Part shown: positions 14,604 through 47,965 of the stretch, piece by piece
How the letters are laid out: every line of letters begins with the position of its first letter
Numbering within the stretch: the stretch's first letter is position 1
Assembly (NCBI GenBank): GCA_023229845.1
Contig: JALNYK010000008.1
Location: forward strand, 13,781 to 77,780
Length of the DNA stretch: 64,000 bases
Source: Gallionella sp.
GTDB taxonomy: Bacteria; Pseudomonadota; Gammaproteobacteria; Burkholderiales; Gallionellaceae
Direction of reading: 5' to 3'
The notes under the pieces: model-generated
The model's database searches: none
What the model saw: only the letters and a program-made list of their open reading frames with translations
What the model was told of the DNA's origin: nothing
Made by a program: the position numbers and the translations under genes

Positions 14604-14636
14604 CAAAAACCCGGAAAGCTTGACGCTAAACCGGGT
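14604..14636 (-). terminator. Rho-independent-type hairpin (ACCCGG...CCGGGU plus U5) between purF and metZ
   Basis: The minus-strand RNA reads GAACCCGGUUUAGCGUCAAGCUUUCCGGGUUUUUGC and ends only about 17 nt before the metZ ATG. Confidence 0.6.
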
Positions 14637-14755
14637 TCACCCTCTTTAGCTGTATTTATTATGCGCCCGCAAGCTGTTCCTCAAATCGGCGCAAACGGAA
14701 AGTAGCACCGGCCTGCACAGCCTGTCAATCCGGCACAGGCCGCACAGCAGGTTCA

Positions 14756-38607: not shown

Positions 38608-39543
38608 AGCCGAGTTGTTACGAACTGCAATCAAATGCGCGAGGATGGACACCGCGATCTCCGGCGGCGTGCGGCTGCCTATGCTCAGGCCCACCGGCCC
38701 GTGCAGCCGGGCGATCTCCTCCGGCGTGAGGTCGAACAGCGCCAGCCGCTCGCGGCGCTTCGCGTTGTTGACCTTGGAGCCCAGCGCGCCGACATAGAAC
38801 GCGGGCGTTTTCAGCGCCTCCAGCAGCGCCATGTCGTCCAGCTTGGGATCGTGCGAGAGCGCGACGATGGCGGTGCAACTGTCGACCTGCAGCGCCAGCA
38901 CCGCGTCGTCCGGCATCTCGCGGATGAACTCGGTGTTCGGCACATCCCAGGTCCGGCGCATCTCCTCGCCCGGCTCGCAGACGATGACCTGATAGTCCAG
39001 CGCCTGCGCCATGCGCGCGAGGTAGGCGGATGTCTGGCCCGCGCCGATAATCAGCAGCCGCCAGCGCGGGCCGTGCACCGTGGTCAGCGTCGCGCCGTCG
39101 AAGGCGAGGCTGTCGGCGCGAGTCGCGTCGTCCAGTTCCACATGCAAGGTATCCAGATGCAGCGTGCGCCTGACCATCTGGCCGGTCTGGATCAGTTGCA
39201 GCACCCGCCCCACCCAGCCCGCGTCGCGCACCGGCTCAACCACCAGCCGCATCGCGCCGCCGCAAGGCAAGCCGAAGCGCCGCGCCTCCTCGCGCGTCAG
39301 ACCGTAAGTCAGCTGCTCGTAACGGTCCAGCGGCAACTTTCCGTCCCGCGCCAGCCGCACCAGATCGTCCTCGATGCAGCCGCCCGACACCGAGCCCACC
39401 ACCAGCCCGTCAGCGCGCAACGCAAGCATCGCGCCCGGCGGACGCGGACTGGAACCGAAAGTCTCCACCACCGTCACCAGCCATTGCGTATCACCCTGCC
39501 ACTCGCGCAGGGTCTTGAGTACCGAAAGATCGACGCTATCCAT
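38536..39543 (-). CDS. XdhC-family molybdoenzyme maturation factor
   Basis: Start at MDSVDLSVLKTLREW. Contains SSPRPPGAMLALRADG..GSVSGGCIE and the Rossmann-like LLIIGAGQ. The C-terminal tail VHENHEKTRTNSKTLSGCTTPAG is read from the MITE-like repeat. Confidence 0.85.
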   Translation of the reverse strand: MDSVDLSVLKTLREWQGDTQWLVTVVETFGSSPRPPGAMLALRADGLVVGSVSGGCIEDDLVRLARDGKLPLDRYEQLTYGLTREEARRFGLPCGGAMRLVVEPVRDAGWVGRVLQLIQTGQMVRRTLHLDTLHVELDDATRADSLAFDGATLTTVHGPRWRLLIIGAGQTSAYLARMAQALDYQVIVCEPGEEMRRTWDVPNTEFIREMPDDAVLALQVDSCTAIVALSHDPKLDDMALLEALKTPAFYVGALGSKVNNAKRRERLALFDLTPEEIARLHGPVGLSIGSRTPPEIAVSILAHLIAVRNNSAVHENHEKTRTNSKTLSGCTTPAG

Positions 39544-39822
39544 TGCGCTGCCTCCATGGGTTCGTTCGGCTTCGGACGCACCGATGCGACGGCTGCCTGA
39601 AGGATGGCGCAACTTAACAAACTCGCGGACGCTTACCTATGGGGTGGATACCTACCCGAGGGGGATGGGAAAAGACGCATCGGACCAACGTCAGATGAAG
39701 ATATATGCCGAAATATCTATGTATTTCGGCATATTGTTCGGGTGGGGTGTATCGGGTATGGTGCGGCCTTCTCCGGCATTTTTCTTGTGTCTACTTAACA
39801 TTAGCCATTTCCGAACTCGAAT

Positions 39823-40776
39823 ATGAATCTCTTCATCGATACAAACGTTTTGCTCAACTTCTTTTACTTCTCCAAAGACAGTTTGGATGAGCTTGAGAAA
39901 GTCTTTGTACTCCAGAACTACGGGAAAATAAGTCTTTGGCTGACAGATCAAGTAGAGCTTGAGTTTTCCAGGAATCGTGAAACGAAGATCGCAGATGCAC
40001 TCAAGAAATTCCTCGATGAAAAGCCCAACTCAGGAATTCCTCATGTAGCACGAGGCTATCCTGAATCCGATCAATTGATGGAAGCCCTGAAACAAGTAAA
40101 TTCATCACGAGATCAACTGATGGTGAAAGTACGAAATGACATATCTAAAAAATCGCTCTATGCCGACAAACTAATTAAAGAGATATTTGCAAAGTCCACA
40201 CGGATTAAATTCACGGAAGATCAATTTACTGCGGCCAAAAGAAGATCCGACTTGCGAAGTCCCCCTGGAAAAAACAACTCCTTAGGCGATGCCATCAACT
40301 GGGAAGCGCTGCTAGAGGCTATTCCAGAAGGTCAGGATATTTATATTGTTTCTGAGGATGGAGACTTCACAAGCCCACTAGACACTGAGCGTCTTAGCGA
40401 TTTTTTGACGGAAGAATGGGCAAGCAAGAAGAAATCAAAGGCAATTCTCTACAAGAGACTGTCTCAGTTCCTGTCCCTAATGTTTCCTGATGCGAAGGTG
40501 GCAGCCGAACTAGAAAAGGACATCCTAATTGCGGAACTCGCTAGCAGCGGCTCCTTCGCCGCAACGCATCAGGCTGTTTCCGAACTAAATAAATTCGCCA
40601 GTTTTTCTCCGAAACAAGCTAGCGAAATCGCAGATGCCTACATAGTAAACTCCCAAGTCGGCTGGATTGCGACAGACGAGGACGTTCATGCCTTTGGCAA
40701 AAAGATTCAAGAAGCGCACAGCGCCACTCTTGATCCAACGCAGCAAAAGGCGTTTTTGGGTATTCTCACTAAATAA
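39823..40776 (+). CDS. PIN-like nuclease domain protein (DUF4935-type impression) with uncharacterised C-terminal domain
   Basis: 317 aa. MNLFIDTNVLLNFF (PIN Asp in DTN), then further acidic positions in QVELEF, GDAINWE and VSEDGDF. The last roughly 120 aa have no motif I recognise. 37% G+C in the hand-counted line 39841-39900. No obvious SD. Confidence 0.65.
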   Translation: MNLFIDTNVLLNFFYFSKDSLDELEKVFVLQNYGKISLWLTDQVELEFSRNRETKIADALKKFLDEKPNSGIPHVARGYPESDQLMEALKQVNSSRDQLMVKVRNDISKKSLYADKLIKEIFAKSTRIKFTEDQFTAAKRRSDLRSPPGKNNSLGDAINWEALLEAIPEGQDIYIVSEDGDFTSPLDTERLSDFLTEEWASKKKSKAILYKRLSQFLSLMFPDAKVAAELEKDILIAELASSGSFAATHQAVSELNKFASFSPKQASEIADAYIVNSQVGWIATDEDVHAFGKKIQEAHSATLDPTQQKAFLGILTK

Positions 40777-40861
40777 TCCCTGCACAATCCCGGATCTGCG
40801 CAAAAAGCCGCACAGGCCGATTACTTCTACATTAGGAACTGCACATCAAATTGCATTCAAC

Positions 40862-41401
40862 ATGGATAGCATACTTACATCATTGGGGTTAGCTACTGGT
40901 GGCGGGATACTCGCTGTTGTAGCCAAACATTTTTTCGACAATCCAATTCGAGAAATTGCCTTTAATCTTCCCTGGCTTAGAGTGAAGGCGAGTTCTCTCG
41001 CGGGCTACTGGCGCGCCGAATATGAATTCCAGGAGTGTGGAAAGAATGGCGTACATACATCGGTATCCGCACTCTATGAGCTAATCGAATGGCCTGGAAA
41101 TATCGTGCTCATTCGTGAGATACCTACCAACGGTGCTCCCGCCTCCATTGTGATTAAAGCAAAAAAGCGAAACAGCTACTTGAGTGGCTCCTATGAAAAT
41201 GCCGCTGCTCACGACACGCTGCACGGTGTATTTCAATTATGGCTACACCCCAAAGGCGAAGAAATGCGTGGGCATTTCTTAGGCTTTAGTGCTGAGGCTC
41301 CAAATTGCTTCAACACCGGCGAATGGCTGTGGTCGCGACTTACGACCGCCAGAACTGATGAGGCATTGGAGGAGGCAATAAAAAAGTTCGCTGAACATTG
41401 A
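40862..41401 (+). CDS. Hypothetical single-pass membrane protein
   Basis: 179 aa from the internal ATG of ORF 40667..41401. It has an N-terminal helix LGLATGGGILAVVAKHFF and a soluble domain of about 150 aa (GYWRAEYEF...LHGVFQLWLHPKGEEMRGHFLGF) that I do not recognise. It is on the same strand as the PIN-like gene, 85 nt downstream, and has similarly low GC. Confidence 0.5.
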   Translation: MDSILTSLGLATGGGILAVVAKHFFDNPIREIAFNLPWLRVKASSLAGYWRAEYEFQECGKNGVHTSVSALYELIEWPGNIVLIREIPTNGAPASIVIKAKKRNSYLSGSYENAAAHDTLHGVFQLWLHPKGEEMRGHFLGFSAEAPNCFNTGEWLWSRLTTARTDEALEEAIKKFAEH

Positions 41402-41489
41402 TGTGTTTGTTGAATCGCACCCCTAAGTTCTCCTCCGGCCCATTTGTACTATCATTCATGCGCAATCACAGCATGGGATGACACTAGCG

Positions 41490-41757
41490 ATGACACAGGA
41501 AATCAGCACCGAGGTATTGCTGGAAAAATACGCCGAGCCGGGCGAGAACTCGGTGGAGGACGTGCGCCGCCGCGTGGCGCGTGGGTTGGCGCAGGCCGAA
41601 GCGCCGGAGCAGCGCGCGCAGTGGGAAGAGAAGTTTTTCCTCGCGCAGGAAAACGGCTTCGTACCCGCCGGGCGCATCAACTCCGCCGCGGGGCTGGATA
41701 GCCAGGCAACGCTGATCAACTGCTTCGTGCAGCCGGTGGGCGATGCGATCTCCGGCG
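41490..41757 (+). pseudogene. 5' fragment (89 codons) of a class II ribonucleotide reductase gene (nrdJ'), diverged copy of 45065-45332
   Basis: [33 protein letters not shown]...[13 protein letters not shown], after which homology stops. About 21 mismatches in roughly 268 nt versus the intact gene by hand alignment, and 3 aa differences. Confidence 0.85.
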
Positions 41758-41779
41758 GCTTAATAATAGGGGACAGACC

Positions 41780-43115
41780 CTGAGGTTTCCCCTCAAATGA
41801 TCTTTCTTATTCAGTTTGTTACAGCTAAAGGCTGGCATGCATGACACCGATAACTCCTCCATCTCGGCGACCAAACGTCGAAGGAGGAAATGTCATGCAT
41901 GCCAAGGGGATTGTAGACGCAATGCTGGGGAATTGTCTTTCCGGCCTTCACGCGAAGTTGGCTGAATCCGTCAAAGCAGCGGTGTGCAGCGCATTGGTTG
42001 GTGGTCGTCTGAGTTTGAGCCAGCTTGCCCGTTCGGTAGATTCTCAGACGGCGATGCGCCATCGCATCAAACGTATCGACAGGCTGCTTGGGAACGAAGC
42101 GCTGCACGGAGAACGCGCGACGATTTACCACGAAGTCGCCGCGCAGTGGCTGAATGGAATCGAGCATCTGCTCGTGATCGTAGACTGGTCGGATGCAACG
42201 ACCGATCAACAGTGGCATTTGCTGCGTGCCAGCGTTTCGGTCGAAGGGCGCAGCATGACGCTGTATGAAGAAGTCCATCCGCAGCGCAAGTATGGAGACC
42301 GAGACGTGCATCGGCGATTTTTGACTCAATTGGCAAACCTGCTGCCTGAGGGCTGTATGCCCATCATCATGACCGATGCCGGGTTTCGCTCGACTTGGTT
42401 CGACTTGGTGACGAAGCGTGCTGGCAATGGGTGGGGCGAATCCGAGGAAAAGATATGGTCAGCATTGCGGGCGGCGCATGGAGACGATGTACGGATGTTT
42501 ACCAAGAGGCCACCTCGCGCGCGCGTCAGTTCGTCGATGCACATTACGTCCGCAGTCGTCCGACGAGCTGTCGGCTAGTGTTGGTCAAACGCGAAGCGAA
42601 AGGACGCACTCGTCGTACTCGCATGGGGAAGCGCTCCTGTTCCCATACCTCGCTCAAAGCCGCACGTGGTAGCCGTGAGCCATGGCTGCTGGCTTGTTCG
42701 CCGGGGCTTGCCCATCTGACTCCGGAGTCGGTTGTTTCTCTCTACGCACAAAGAATGCGAATCGAGCAATCGTTCCGCGATATCAAGAATGAGCGGCTTG
42801 GTTTTGGTTTGACCTCTTCGCGTTCGCGTACGGGTAAACGGTTGGAGATACTGCTGCTGATCGGGTACTTGGCCGGGTGGCTTATGCGGCTAATTGGGGA
42901 GTGCGCGCAACAGTGTCAGATGCAACTTCAATTCCAAAGCGTCGCACATCTCGACCACAAGGAAATCTCTGTGCTCACGTTGGCGCGCAGGGTCATTGAT
43001 GCGGGGGCTCCATGGCTGAAACGTCTTCGTCCAAAAGACTCATTCATCCTTTTGCGCCAACAAGCTCGGGAGGCCTGCCATGGAATGTGATGTTAAATTT
43101 GAGGGGAAACCTCAG
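41780..43115 (+). mobile_element. IS4-family, IS10-like insertion sequence (1336 bp) with 9-bp target-site duplication
   Basis: Perfect 19-bp terminal IRs CTGAGGTTTCCCCTCAAAT (compare IS10 CTGATGAATCCCCTAATGA). Flanked by direct repeats GGACAGACC at 41771-41779 and 43116-43124. Confidence 0.9.
41895..43090 (+). pseudogene. IS10-like DDE transposase, split by one frameshift near 42410-42425
   Basis: Frame 1 reads ...HRIKRIDRLLGNE...VIVDWSD...IIMTDAGFRSTWFDLVTKR. Frame 2 reads CWQWVGRIRGK...EPWLLAC...SLYAQRMRIEQSFRDIKN (YREK motif). Together they are colinear with IS10 transposase as I recall it. Confidence 0.85.
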
Positions 43116-43209
43116 GGACAGACCACGGTTTCCCTAGCCCACGTAGAGCGCACTCGGGCAATGCGCCGTATGCATCCCTCCCAACATCCGGCGCTCTATT
43201 GAATCGCCA

Positions 43210-43500
43210 TCACGCCGCCAGCAATTCCACCTTCAACTTCTTCCCCAGCACCGCTGCCGCGCTCGCCAGCGTGGTCAGTGTCAGGCTGGTGTTGTTCTCG
43301 TCCAGCAGGCGGTTCAATGAGGCGCGGCTGGTGTGCATTTTCTTCGCCATCGTGGTCTTGTTCAGGTTCTGTACTTTCATCTCCTGCTCGATCTGCCATG
43401 CGATGAAAGCGATCATTTCTACTTGGCGCTGACACCCCAAAGCCGGATTCGCGCGAAGACGGCAAAAGGGGCGCGAAGCATCAAGGTAGTCGGCGGACAT
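43210..43500 (-). CDS. XRE-family HTH antitoxin-like protein (orphan)
   Basis: 96 aa from MSADYLDAS. HTH segment LNKTTMAKKMHTSRASLNRLL and a C-terminus TLASAAAVLGKKLKVELLAA typical of HigA/HTH_37-like antitoxins. The start could instead be at 43416. Confidence 0.55.
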   Translation of the reverse strand: MSADYLDASRPFCRLRANPALGCQRQVEMIAFIAWQIEQEMKVQNLNKTTMAKKMHTSRASLNRLLDENNTSLTLTTLASAAAVLGKKLKVELLAA

Positions 43501-43709
43501 AGCCGCCAGACCGCAGAAATACAGCACGAAGCCCATCTGAAAAGCTGGCTGCCATACCCACCGTACCGCATAAATACGGCATCAAGCGAAGTGTTTTCTC
43601 GTCGTCGTGAAGCTATTGTAACTTCGCCGCATCCAGTCTACGCCGCGGTCTCGCACTCGCGGCCATCATCACGCCGCACTTCGCATAATTTATTGCAAGG
43701 AGAAATAAA

Positions 43710-44795
43710 ATGAAAACAAAGTTTAATTTTAAAGCAGCATTAATTTCAGTTGCACTTCTGGGCGGATCAATAACTTCAGGCGCGGTGTATTCAAGCCCTT
43801 TCCCTTTGCTCAAAGCCAACGGCGTTAGCACGGCCCAAGATGCCACCGACTATTACCGCACCATCGACCCCCCGGTTGCCGGACACCCGAACGGCCTAAG
43901 ATATACCCAGGCAGAATGGAGAGAAGTTAATGGCTTTAATGATCCCGCGAATGAAATCGTTGTGGTGGGGGGACACAAAAACGTCTCTGATCTCGGCTTC
44001 TGGCGAAGAATTGAGATGGTCATTGACAAGCGTTGGGGGAAAAGGAGGAACGTCGCGTTTACCACCTACAACTTCGAGTTCGAATCTGACACGACAGACG
44101 TAAAAAAAGCAAAGTCCATCGTGAATATGGAATACTCCCCTGGCCCGAATGGTGACCGTATCACCAAGTTCTACATCTACAATCCCGATGGTACACGCAA
44201 GGCCGATACTTTCTTTGATCCTGACGGCATTAACGACCTGACCAAGCAAGATAACCTGAACTTGCCAAACGGTTGCGCTGCCTGCCATGGTGGAGGGGAA
44301 GACTTTAGAGCCCATAGTGGTAAGACCGACGGCGGATTCCTTGCGTTTGACTTCAACGTTTTCGAGTACGGCACGCTGACATCCCGTGCAGCTAATGAAC
44401 CCAATGTGAAGAAGCTTAATCAAGGGGTGCTGATGACAGATCCGCCCAGCGCCGTAAAGAATCTGATATATGGACTCTACGGTGGCAAATCCCTGCCGTT
44501 GGCCACGCAAAACTCGGATTACATGCCGAGCGACTGGGCCACAGAGCCAGCACTCTGGAAGGTCGTCGTGACGGATTGCCTGGGCTGCCATACCCTGTCC
44601 GAATCGTCAGTGCTGAACCTCAATTACTGGAAGCTCCACGTCGGGTCGCTCCGTGAGCAACTTTTCGAATATCGACTCATGCCAAACTCGCCTTATGCAA
44701 ACAGACGTTTCTGGAATATGGACCCTAATCAGCCGCCTACTACGCCGGCCCATAGTGATACCGTAAGAGATGCACTCAAACGCTTCCGCCCTTGA
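43710..44795 (+). CDS. Secreted protein with two CxxCH haem-c motifs (putative dihaem c-type cytochrome, family unknown)
   Basis: 361 aa. AAGGAG RBS, signal peptide MKTKFNFKAALISVALLGGSITSGAVYS, and CAACH (about residue 200) and CLGCH (about residue 290). Confidence 0.6.
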   Translation: MKTKFNFKAALISVALLGGSITSGAVYSSPFPLLKANGVSTAQDATDYYRTIDPPVAGHPNGLRYTQAEWREVNGFNDPANEIVVVGGHKNVSDLGFWRRIEMVIDKRWGKRRNVAFTTYNFEFESDTTDVKKAKSIVNMEYSPGPNGDRITKFYIYNPDGTRKADTFFDPDGINDLTKQDNLNLPNGCAACHGGGEDFRAHSGKTDGGFLAFDFNVFEYGTLTSRAANEPNVKKLNQGVLMTDPPSAVKNLIYGLYGGKSLPLATQNSDYMPSDWATEPALWKVVVTDCLGCHTLSESSVLNLNYWKLHVGSLREQLFEYRLMPNSPYANRRFWNMDPNQPPTTPAHSDTVRDALKRFRP

Positions 44796-44888: not shown

Positions 44889-45064
44889 AGTTGCTCAACC
44901 GAGTATTCATGCGATGCAACTCCACCTTCAGCTTTCTTCTCCAGCCCACGTAGGCACTACCCCCCGGCAGGCTGATTGTCTTCCACAAGCCCTGAACTTG
45001 TCCTCTGACCGTTTCCTGTTTGTACTATCATTCATCGCAATAACTGCACGGGATGGAATCAGCG

Positions 45065-47965
45065 ATGACACAGGAAATCAGCACCGAAGTTTTGCTGGAA
45101 AAATACGCCGAGCCGGGCGAGCACTCGGTCGAGGATGTGCGCCGCCGCGTGGCGCGCGGGCTGGCGCAGGCGGAGAAGCCGGAGCAGCGCACGCAGTGGG
45201 AGGAGAAATTCTTCCTCGCGCAGGAGAACGGCTTCGTGCCCGCCGGGCGCATCAACTCCGCCGCGGGGCTGGACAGCCAGGCGACGCTGATCAACTGTTT
45301 CGTGCAGCCGGTGGGCGACGCGATCTCCGGCGTCGTCGACGGCAAGCCCGGCATCTACGACGCGCTGCAGCAGGCCGCCGAGACCATGCGGCGCGGCGGC
45401 GGCGTGGGCTACGACTTCTCGGCGATCCGTCCCGAGGGCGCGCATGTGAAAGGCACCAACTCGCGCGCCAGCGGCCCGATCTCCTACATGCGCGTGTTCG
45501 ACCGCTCCTGCGAGACGGTGGAATCCGCCGGTGCGCGGCGCGGCGCGCAGATGGGCGTGCTGCGCTGCGACCATCCCGACATCGAAAAATTCATCGGCGC
45601 CAAGGACAAGGGCGACCTGCGCAACTTCAACATCTCCGTCGGCGTGACCGACGCGCTGATGCGGGCGGTGGAGAAGGACGAGGAATTCGAGCTGGTGCAT
45701 GCCGCCGAACCCGCCGCCGCGTTCAAGGAACAGGGTGCTTCCCGCCGCGCCGACGGCAAGTGGATCTACCGCAAGGTGCGCGCCGTCGAGCTGTGGAAGC
45801 AGATCATCGCCAGCACCTACGACCACGCCGAACCGGGCGTGCTGTTCATCGACCTGATGAACCGCGACAACAACCTGTCGTATTGCGAGGTGATCGAAGC
45901 GACCAACCCCTGCGCCGAGCAACCCCTGCCCGCCTACGGCTGCTGCTGCTTAGGCTCGATCAACCTGACGCGCATGGTGAAGAATCCATTCTCGGTGCAT
46001 GCCGGCTTCGACTACGAACCGTTCAAACAACTGGTGCGCACCTCAGTGCGCATGCTGGACAACGTGCTGGACGTGAGCGCGTGGCCGCTGCCGGAACAGC
46101 AGCAGGAGGCGCAGAGCAAGCGCCGCATCGGCCTGGGCTACACCGGGCTGGGCGATGCGCTGGCGATGCTGGGGCTGCGCTACGACACCGACGCGGCGCG
46201 CGCCTTCGCCGCCGACATCACCCGCATCATGCGCGACGAGGCCTATTCCGCCTCGGTGGAACTGGCGCAGGAGCGCGGCGCGTTCCCGCTGCTGGATGCG
46301 GAGCAATATCTCGCCGCACCGCGCTTCGCCTCGCGCCTGCCGGACGAGCTGAAGGACAAGATACGGCGGCACGGCATACGCAACAGCCATCTGCTGTCCA
46401 TCGCGCCCACCGGCACCATCTCGCTGGCCTTCGCCGACAACGCCTCCAACGGCATCGAGCCGGCGTTTTCCTGGTACTACACGCGCAAGAAACGCATGCC
46501 GGACGGCACGACCAAGGACTACCAGGTCGAGGACCATGCCTGGCGGTTGTACAAGAAACAGGGCGGCGACACAGAGCATCTGCCGCCCGCCTTCGTCTCC
46601 GCGCTGGACATCTCCGCGATCGACCACATGAAGATGGTCGCCGCGGTCGCGCCGTTTATCGACACCTCGATCAGCAAGACGGTGAACGTGCCCGCCGATT
46701 ATCCCTACGAGGATTTCAAGGACCTCTACACCGAGGCATGGAAAGCCGGACTCAAGGGGCTGGCGACCTATCGGCCCAACAGTGTGCTGGGCTCGGTGCT
46801 GTCGGTCACGCCGGAACCGAAGACAGACGAACAGCCGCAGGATTTCGTGTTCGACCAAGATCGGCGCATCGAGCTGGAAGCCACGCCCACGCCGGCGCTG
46901 GCCTCCTTGCGCTGGCCGGGCCGGCCGAAGCTGTCCGCAGGCAGCGAGGGCTGGGTGTCGCAGGTGGTCAAGCATCCGCTCGGCAGCTTCGTCGCGTTCG
47001 TGTCGCATACCACAAACCGCCCTCTCCCCAACCCTCTCCCGCAAGCGGGCGAGGGGGCAAACGAATCGCTGCGCGACTCTTCAACTCTGGGCCACAACCA
47101 TCCGTTCGAAGTATGGGTGAACGGCTCCGAGCAGCCGCGCGGACTCGGCGCGCTGGCGAAGTCGCTGTCGATGGACATGCGCACGCGCGACCCGGTGTGG
47201 ATACGCATGAAGCTGGAGATGCTGACCAAGACCGCGGGCGACGACGCCTTCGACATGGCTATGCCACCGGACGGTGAAATGAAGCGCATGCCCAGCCTGG
47301 TCGCCGCGTTCGCGCACCTGCTGAAATACCGCATCGAGGCGCTGGGCGCGCTGGAGATCACCGAGGGCGTGACCACGCCGATGATGGACGCGCTGTTCGC
47401 GAAGAAGGAACCCAAGACCGGCACCGACGGCACGATGAGCTGGACCGTGGATATCGCCAACGCCGGAACCGGCGACGACTTCGTGCTGGGCCTGAAGGAA
47501 CTGGTGCTGCCCGACGGACAGCGCCGCCCCTATTCGATGTGGCTGTCCGGCGTGTATCCGCGCTCGCTCGACGGGCTGTGCAAGGTGCTGAGCCTGGACA
47601 TGCGCGTGATCGACCCGGCGTGGATAGGCATGAAACTGCGCAAGCTGCTGAACTTCGGCGAACCGCTGGGCGACTTCATGGCGCGCGTGCCGGGCGGGAT
47701 GAAGATGGAGAGCTACCCCTCGACCGTCTCCTACGTCGCCAAGCTCATCATCCACCGCTACGCGATGCTCGGCATCCTCGACGAACAAGGCTACCCGGTG
47801 CAGCAGATGGGCGTGCTGGAGATCCCCGAAGGCCAGATCAAGCCGACCACGATCACCAAGCCGCTGACCGGCAAGCTGTGCAAGGAATGCGGCAACGCGA
47901 CATTGATAAAAAAGGATGGGTGCGAGTTCTGCACCAGTTGCGGGGCGATAGGGGCGTGCGGCTGA
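45065..47965 (+). CDS. nrdJ: Adenosylcobalamin-dependent (class II) ribonucleoside-diphosphate reductase
   Basis: 966 aa from MTQEIS. Contains [21 protein letters not shown] (active-site region), SISKTVNVP and a C-terminal Cys cluster CKECGN...CEFCTSCG. Confidence 0.95.
47017..47063. repeat. CCCTCTCCCCAACCCTCTCCCGCAAGCGGGCGAGGGGG repeat lying in-frame inside nrdJ
   Basis: Same family as 10343-10390 and 35610-35770. Translated as [15 protein letters not shown]. Confidence 0.8.

Follow-up and report, generated by a model that had tools for sequence, protein, structure and literature searches.

Two neighbouring genes of low G+C content in the chromosome of Gallionella sp. raise the question of whether they act together or simply stand together. 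They are found in a stretch of 64,000 nucleotides (contig JALNYK010000008.1 of GenBank assembly GCA_023229845.1, positions 13,781 to 77,780 of the forward strand), hereafter called the window, in the intergenic region between xdhC and nrdJ. The first gene encodes a protein with a PIN-like nuclease domain and is called here the PIN gene; the second, G2, encodes a protein with a predicted membrane helix. The original prediction had taken them for a two-gene cassette, a candidate uncharacterised defence or abortive-infection (Abi) pair. Our analysis leads to another explanation, which we consider likely, namely that two unrelated integron-type cassettes form a fossil mini-array at this locus. The first cassette (39801-40831) would carry a stand-alone protein of the PIN_12/DUF4935 family, and the second (40832 to ~41415) a rare protein made of a membrane helix and a small beta-barrel. 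Each cassette would move separately in other bacteria, by recombination catalysed by the integron integrase IntI at attC sites. Here, these sites would have decayed, with ATT in place of the GTT cores, a mutated R'' box and a partly deleted L'' arm, and mobility would have been lost. This scheme leaves room for a block that formed first and was then delivered by recombination, as may be hinted at by the diverged fragment of a ribonucleotide reductase (RNR) gene that adjoins it.

Both open reading frames (ORFs) are genuine genes, of foreign composition and under purifying selection. The PIN gene (39823-40776, + strand) encodes a protein of 317 aa that begins with MNLFIDTNVLLNFF and comprises an N-terminal PIN-like nuclease domain (residues ~1-200) followed by a C-terminal helical domain (~205-317). 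G2 (40862-41401, + strand) lies 85 nt after the PIN stop codon on the same strand, begins with an ATG and encodes 179 aa, for which an N-terminal transmembrane (TM) helix and an eight-stranded beta-barrel are predicted. A longer reading of G2 (244 aa from a TTG at 40667) was rejected, as the Met at 40862 is the start in all homologues. An exact-sequence look-up identified the pair as proteins MCK9202349.1 and MCK9202348.1 of a Gallionella sp. metagenome-assembled genome (MAG). The G+C content was 41-50% across 39700-41350, compared with 63-70% in the flanks. It reached 44.3% in the PIN gene (46% at third codon positions, GC3) and 48.4% in G2 (GC3 47%), and 65.5% in the neighbouring RNR gene (GC3 88.5%). 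The ratio of nonsynonymous to synonymous substitution rates (dN/dS) of the PIN gene was 0.05-0.08 against four relatives, which indicates strong purifying selection, and the alignment of G2 with 8 homologues contained 61 invariant columns. Because of this low dN/dS and of these invariant columns, the ORFs are real genes and not chance. Several parts of the original prediction were thus borne out. The low-GC gene pair consists of two intact ORFs, and the horizontal acquisition of both genes was supported. Clear Shine-Dalgarno sequences are indeed missing, since nothing resembling one was found in the 20 nt before either start. Also, the location is as described, with xdhC upstream on the opposite strand, and an RNR 5' fragment, an insertion sequence (IS), a helix-turn-helix (HTH) antitoxin-like ORF and the full RNR gene downstream.

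The partnership itself did not hold. The PIN gene and G2 are not a conserved two-gene defence system, and their adjacency is an accident of cassette juxtaposition. With G2 as the tBLASTN query, no G2 relative was found in any of the 80 PIN genome loci (0/80), nor in 13 further PIN loci (L092-L104), and no PIN gene was found in the G2 loci L002 and L004-L011. A single contig, L003, contained both genes; it is 100% identical to positions 38650-41698 of the window (3,049 nt), and therefore comes from the same organism. That the two families would not co-localise had been set as a refuting outcome, and the proposal of a two-gene defence or Abi cassette is thus not supported. Other neighbours were not conserved either: when the ORFs within 3.5 kb of the PIN gene were compared all-against-all in the 80 loci, no family was present in more than six of them, and the most frequent one, that of tyrosine recombinases, was found at variable distances. 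PIN relatives sharing 85-93% identity occupy at least four other contexts (with DUF1003, with a cupin gene, with a 311-aa ORF, and between DUF4145 and TetR). Relatives of G2 adjoin toxin-antitoxin (TA) cassettes or unknown small genes, or sit in the cargo of a Tn7-like element.

It could be argued that the two genes form a lineage-specific defence or Abi module, joined recently by cassette shuffling, in which the PIN nuclease and the membrane barrel cooperate as sensor/effector and membrane effector. The genes are on the same strand and only 85 nt apart, no terminator was predicted on the + strand between them, and both ORFs are intact. Each also has a circumstantial link to biological conflict, as the C-terminus of the PIN protein matches PDC-S34, a candidate defence family of PADLOC, and remote relatives of G2 are fused to TIR domains; moreover, integron cassettes are reservoirs of defence genes (bioRxiv 10.1101/2024.07.02.601686). 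However, nothing beyond adjacency supports such a module, and this adjacency is seen in one organism (the window and the identical L003), whereas the PIN gene is conserved solo in more than 250 species-level genomes and the spacer between the two genes is a cassette junction. We therefore regard a cooperating pair as very unlikely.

The evidence for cassettes comes first from other bacteria, where relatives of the PIN gene are bona fide integron cassettes. The contig that encodes a 91%-identical PIN relative carries a same-strand array of more than 12 small unrelated ORFs, separated by gaps of ~65-125 nt and including TA cassettes, and L092 (85% identity to PIN) carries a similar same-strand array of unrelated small genes. 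In Motiliproteus (L024), Vibrio atypicus (L055) and Pontiella (L046), divergent integron integrases were found 0.9-1.8 kb from the PIN gene, with scores of 405-489 bits on TIGR02249 (cutoff 265). In these integrase-bearing loci, the PIN gene is bracketed by ...AAC/GTTAG... sites, including a Vibrio VCR-type repeat. A hallmark of integron cassettes is that their first bases (TTRRRY) are complementary to the R'' box of their own attC. This was scored with a GTTRRRY-type 7-mer located 17-95 nt before the ATG, and a start box exactly complementary to an AAC-ending R'' 7-mer at the stop codon was present in 16 of the 87 PIN loci (~18%), at 17-41 nt from the ATG in 15 of these 16. When flanks from different loci were paired as a control (200 permutations), the mean was 1.6 and the maximum 6. 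An attC with conserved features was present downstream of the ORF in the relatives L092, L024, L055 and L005. Also, five independent contexts (the window, L092, L097, L099 and L101) have just the cassette in common, the sequence before (G)TTAGCC/(G)TTAACC being unrelated. G2 is, in its relatives, an integron cassette of its own: in L005, the G2 relative starts after ...CTAC/GTTAGAG (the slash marking the boundary) and possesses its own complete attC of 65 nt (CCCTAAC...GTTGAGG).

A strict attC finder, combining a regular expression and folding (RYYYAAC...GTTRRRY with complementary boxes), was also tried and gave zero matches anywhere; R' and R'' need not pair fully in arrays. The arrays of L008 and L092, which come from two metagenomes, contain a recurring inter-cassette element, GATAAGGGGCCAGGCTCGAATTGATTTCC, together with its inverted copy (L008 1572-1740, 2400-2460 and 3029-3134; L092 1738-2077, 3995-4422 and 6834-7034). 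They also contain perfect hairpins of ~65 nt (GAATCTTTGGGGTCAG...CTGACCCCGAAGATTC). Both the element and the hairpins look unlike canonical attC sites.

In the window, the limits of homology fall at decayed versions of the same sites. Nucleotide similarity with L092 extends over 39790-40827 and with L097 over 39783-40774, and the breakpoints of homology with the relatives lie at 39783-39800 and 40774-40831. The alignment of the upstream sequences of the five independent contexts placed the left core of the PIN cassette at 39800..39806 (+ strand), where a degenerate ATTAGCC replaces the GTTAGCC or GTTAACC found in the relatives 16-17 nt before the ATG. The spacer between the divergent xdhC and the PIN cassette (39613..39799, + strand) includes a hairpin with a 9-bp stem at 39707-39730, and it ends with ~10-17 nt (39783/39790-39799, ...TCTACTTAAC) similar to the 3' end of the attC located before the PIN cassette of L092.

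On the other side of the gene, two attC sites could be aligned with the 85-nt spacer that separates PIN from G2: the intact one of L092 and the one located before the G2 relative in L005. This alignment allowed us to assign positions 40777..40837 (+ strand) to an eroded attC of the PIN cassette, and the spacer is thus a cassette boundary and not an intra-operon spacer. The remnant of its R'' box reads GCACAAT (40782-40788), compared with GGCTAAC in L092; there, GGCTAAC is complementary to the cassette start GTTAGCC, whereas the start TTAGCC in the window is not complementary to GCACAAT, and the cassette hallmark is absent. The L'' arm has lost about 11 nt, and the central stem is weaker. At 40831-40837, the R' core is ATTAGGA and departs from the GTTRRRY consensus; the G2 cassette starts at 40832. 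The R'' remnant at 40782 ends with AAT and not AAC, and an AAT/ATT pair would stay complementary, which may be a coincidence, decay or a site variant. For the G2 cassette, GTTGAAT at 41409..41415 (+ strand) may be what is left of the R' core; the assignment is weak, as it relies on a single 7-mer, and the rest of the attC is absent. The heptamer CCCTAAG at 41421 was rejected as the corresponding R'' remnant, as the sequence there has the look of a diverged RNR upstream region.

Cleavage of attC sites takes place at a conserved core, the AAC/GTT triplet. As the core triplets are mutated in the window, the cassettes would no longer be excisable by IntI, and they would now be fixed in place since no integrase is nearby (no intI was found in the 64-kb window by tBLASTN with two IntI queries, best E=0.5). 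The locus resembles integron cassettes and the CALIN/SALIN elements of IntegronFinder in its promoterless single ORFs on one strand, its 7-bp core boundaries, its cassette relatives and the lack of a nearby integrase. It differs from CALIN/SALIN by the ATT core triplets, the mutated R'', the partly deleted L'' arm and a second cassette with almost no attC. It is a decayed remnant, which would probably not be called even as a CALIN.

Several observations weigh against this explanation. No stable hairpin was predicted in the PIN-G2 spacer (z=+0.2 to +0.4 compared with shuffled sequences), and because no attC of the window passes the structural test, the integron origin rests on homology to cassettes elsewhere and not on a functional local site. 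A relaxed attC finder, which allowed one mismatch but enforced AAC/GTT pairing and required at least 13 outer pairs, was dropped, as it gave 710 matches per 1.2 Mb of real sequence versus 161 per 0.29 Mb of shuffled sequence. The identical G-to-A change in both cores (39800 and 40831, ATTAG for GTTAG) could be a site variant and not decay. No sigma-70-like promoter was found in 39500-41600, which bears on the expression of both genes. The PIN relatives of L001, L012 and L095 lie outside recognisable cassette arrays, so that the PIN family also moves by other routes. Finally, the fact that the two genes do not co-occur elsewhere leaves room for an interaction between PIN and G2 in this organism.

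Some of these points are shared by the hypothesis of a generic, horizontally acquired islet without integron ancestry. The GTTAG-like boxes and the likeness to attC would then be incidental, and the genes would have come together via the IS or by homologous recombination through the foreign RNR 5' fragment. There is no intI in the window and no foldable attC, and some PIN relatives are found outside integrons; in addition, the block is bordered by the IS and by the 91%-identical foreign RNR fragment, in agreement with a delivery by recombination. But in five independent contexts the homology breaks off at the core sites, an intact attC can be aligned with the spacer over its length, and the complementarity between start box and R'' is strongly enriched in the PIN family. 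The two routes are also not exclusive, as delivery by recombination is possible after the block has formed in an integron. We consider an islet of this kind improbable, and retain an ancestry in two separate integron cassettes.

The PIN gene is a member of a known, functionally uncharacterised family, PIN_12/DUF4935. The protein matched Pfam PIN_12 (PF16289) with E=6e-18 and 66.2 bits (cutoff 32), residues 3-182 covering positions 1-172 of the 172 of the profile, and it also matched PIN_8 (E=5e-11). A PIN-like nuclease with the acidic spacing of a PIN active site had been proposed from the sequence, and this was confirmed by the Pfam match and by the alignment, where the motifs singled out at that time (D6/T7/N8, Q43/E47, G155-D156-A157...W160-E161 and D179/D181) are invariant columns in 24 relatives with 41-91% identity. 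The active-site acids D6, E47, D156, D179 and D181 are thus unchanged across the same 24 relatives. In the C-terminal region, E231, K232, F245, H249, N276, Q278, D285 and D287 are invariant. A total of 339 database proteins matched PIN, and the family is conserved over its whole length. It was found at 255 loci in species-representative genomes, from Proteobacteria to Chloroflexota, Cyanobacteria, Planctomycetota and a Candidatus Berkelbacteria MAG.

The AlphaFold2 model of the PIN protein (mean predicted local distance difference test score, pLDDT, of 92.4) showed an alpha/beta fold of PIN type in the N-terminal half and helices in the C-terminal domain. Foldseek searches of the PDB gave weak PIN matches (AF1683, VapC and HARP, E=0.07-0.3), with no match of the model below E=0.07, and the C-terminal domain found no counterpart. 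When this domain was used by itself in a profile search, just 19 short fragments of the same family were retrieved, and no alternative N-terminal partners. DUF4935 proteins have been described as ~350 residues long, with an N-terminal PIN-like domain, conserved acidic residues and a long helical insert, and with a C-terminal region without known relative, their genes being usually monocistronic (Matelska et al., 2017; PMC5499597). The protein of the window agrees with this description in its size, in its N-terminal PIN domain with 4-5 acids, in its long helical insert, in its uncharacterised C-terminus and in its monocistronic context. Its length of 317 aa, the conserved non-PIN C-terminus and the lack of a conserved neighbour in 80 loci are all in line with membership. 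One difference concerns the C-terminal region, which is alpha/beta according to PMC5499597, whereas our AlphaFold model is almost all-helical after residue ~213. From the PIN fold and the conserved residues, which include all four or five metal-binding acids, a metal-dependent endonuclease activity can be inferred. The protein is most likely a Mg2+/Mn2+-dependent endonuclease, acting as a single-gene module without dedicated partner, and its conserved C-terminal helical domain, as modelled, most likely targets or gates the PIN nuclease.

A PIN fold with an intact active site, next to TA and IS debris, calls to mind a VapC-type TA module, with PIN as the toxin and G2 or a small ORF nearby as the antitoxin or immunity protein. 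The best Foldseek matches in the PDB are also VapC-like, though weak, and PIN shares its fold and acidic active site with VapC toxins, which are its closest solved structures. Here, however, the PIN domain has no antitoxin partner: upstream of the gene there is a non-coding spacer and the divergent xdhC, no small upstream ORF or other neighbour is conserved within 3.5 kb in more than 80 loci, and G2 does not accompany PIN in other loci. Moreover, with 317 aa the protein is more than twice the size of a VapC of ~130 aa and contains an extra conserved domain, and the family is reported to be monocistronic (PMC5499597). A TA module of this type is thus extremely unlikely.

A defence role for the PIN gene alone is plausible, on circumstantial grounds. 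The last ~120 aa had been noted as carrying no recognised motif. The presence of an extra domain was confirmed, but the region is not devoid of matches, as residues 224-301 correspond to positions 295-372 of the 384 of the PADLOC profile PDC-S34 (E=1.3e-12). The match concerns the C-terminal ~80 residues of the profile, the N-terminal 290 positions of which do not match PIN. PDC-S34 is itself a computational candidate for a single-gene system, and is mentioned in none of the papers searched. The two nearest genes on each side of the PIN relatives include matches to Gabija, a CBASS cyclase, DRT and several PDC-S profiles, and genes more than five positions away give a similar picture, with matches to BREX, type I restriction-modification (R-M), AbiE and Mza. 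This comparison is suggestive only, as it reports families and not the number of members with any match, and as the far set is not an independent control.

Another indication comes from P1-like phage-plasmids. A full-length PIN_12 relative with 40% identity stands as a lone gene between mat and lxc in phage JL22 (L105, 5001-5951) and in the E. coli plasmid NZ_CP069570.1 (L106, 5001-5951), and at least 20 records of E. coli-type P1-like plasmids contain this relative. WP_023153803.1 is the E. coli P1-like homologue. P1 has the EcoPI res-mod R-M genes in the mat-lxc slot (NC_005856, 3544-9749), and this slot is a documented hot-spot of variation, RD-1 (PMC6906374). Integron cassettes have also been reported to be rich in defence genes, in a study that does not mention PIN_12/DUF4935 (bioRxiv 10.1101/2024.07.02.601686).

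For G2, the original prediction of an N-terminal TM helix followed by an unrecognisable soluble domain agreed with our results. The Kyte-Doolittle mean over 19 residues reached 1.76 at residues 3-21, hydrophobic enough for a membrane helix, and no match was found in Pfam, NCBIfam or PADLOC (the latter at E<=1). The family is rare, with nine close relatives. The model of G2 (pLDDT 75, moderate confidence) showed an N-terminal helix followed by an eight-stranded barrel, for which Foldseek retrieved the C-domain of NHBA (E=3.5e-5), the barrel of the TbpB C-lobe and lipocalins. A profile search among 1.84 billion representatives gave 208 remote relatives; a profile search among PDB sequences found nothing. 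In 7 of 84 sampled relatives, a CAP12/Pycsar-type TIR domain matching PADLOC PDC-S35 was present, and others carried SnoaL-like, TIR_2 or P-loop domains. The fused G2-like modules, made of the membrane helix and the beta-barrel, were found in proteins including P0159, P0160, P0163, P0186 and P0218.

The combination of an N-terminal membrane helix with a small, eight-stranded, lipocalin-like barrel makes G2 similar to Cap15 of CBASS and to the 2TM-beta-barrel effectors. However, Cap15 is not among the top 50 Foldseek matches of G2, and no sequence match to a PADLOC model or to a solved structure links the two. Also, G2 has one predicted TM helix and not two, and no cyclase gene is adjacent, its neighbours being PIN and the RNR fragment. 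The similarity of G2 to Cap15 may thus serve as a lead only.

Taken one step further, these data suggest a scenario that we put forward tentatively, and that we think more doubtful than probable. PIN_12/DUF4935 would be a self-contained anti-phage or anti-plasmid nuclease, the C-terminus of which would sense infection and release the PIN domain; it would be a defence gene so far unrecognised, which would spread as an integron cassette across many phyla and substitute for the EcoPI R-M genes in P1-like phage-plasmids. G2 would independently be a stand-alone member of a superfamily of TM-plus-beta-barrel effectors, the barrel of which is also found fused to TIR domains. Whatever the role of each gene, the apparent operon of a nuclease and a membrane protein is a false lead that does not warrant an entry among new two-gene defence systems. 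A link has now been made between the PIN_12/DUF4935 family, known from at least 255 species-level genomes, and both integron cassettes and the res-mod hot-spot of P1-like phage-plasmids. Screens for phage defence or plasmid addiction could therefore use it as an inexpensive single-gene candidate. The locus also offers an example of cassette fixation far from an integrase, in which the attC sites decay and the ORFs, under purifying selection, stay intact.

On its right side, the block of two cassettes is bordered by a partial copy of the 5' part of the RNR gene (41443..41757, + strand, 315 nt). This copy shows 90.8% identity to 45019-45332 and contains the promoter-proximal region and the first ~93 codons of a class II (B12-dependent) RNR. 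The intact gene follows 3.6 kb downstream, and the IS truncates the copy. As the identity is only 90.8%, the copy probably comes from a related organism or from an old duplication. The IS itself (41771..43124, + strand) is 1,354 bp long, with 28-nt terminal inverted repeats (89% complementary) and a DDE_Tnp_1 transposase, and belongs to the context and not to the cassettes. Two overlapping ORFs (41841-42578 and 42395-43090) share the transposase, which is possibly frameshifted or inactive.

Further downstream, an HTH_37 antitoxin-like ORF (43210-43536, - strand) has no intact toxin partner beside it, and short echoes of its 3' end and of the IS-adjacent sequence occur at 44916-44953, just upstream of the RNR gene; this ORF and these echoes look like TA debris. 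Between them, a 361-aa ORF (43710-44795, + strand) presents a hydrophobic N-terminus and two CxxCH motifs (CAACH and CLGCH). It had no match in Pfam or NCBIfam and is the lone member of its 90% cluster. This ORF may encode a secreted dihaem c-type cytochrome in the iron-oxidising Gallionella, and it is likely also foreign because its G+C content is ~50%. Elsewhere in the window, positions 14625-14702 (- strand) matched the Rfam SAM_alpha riboswitch with 37.7 bits (gathering score 36), a family described for Alphaproteobacteria, the window being from a betaproteobacterial Gallionella.

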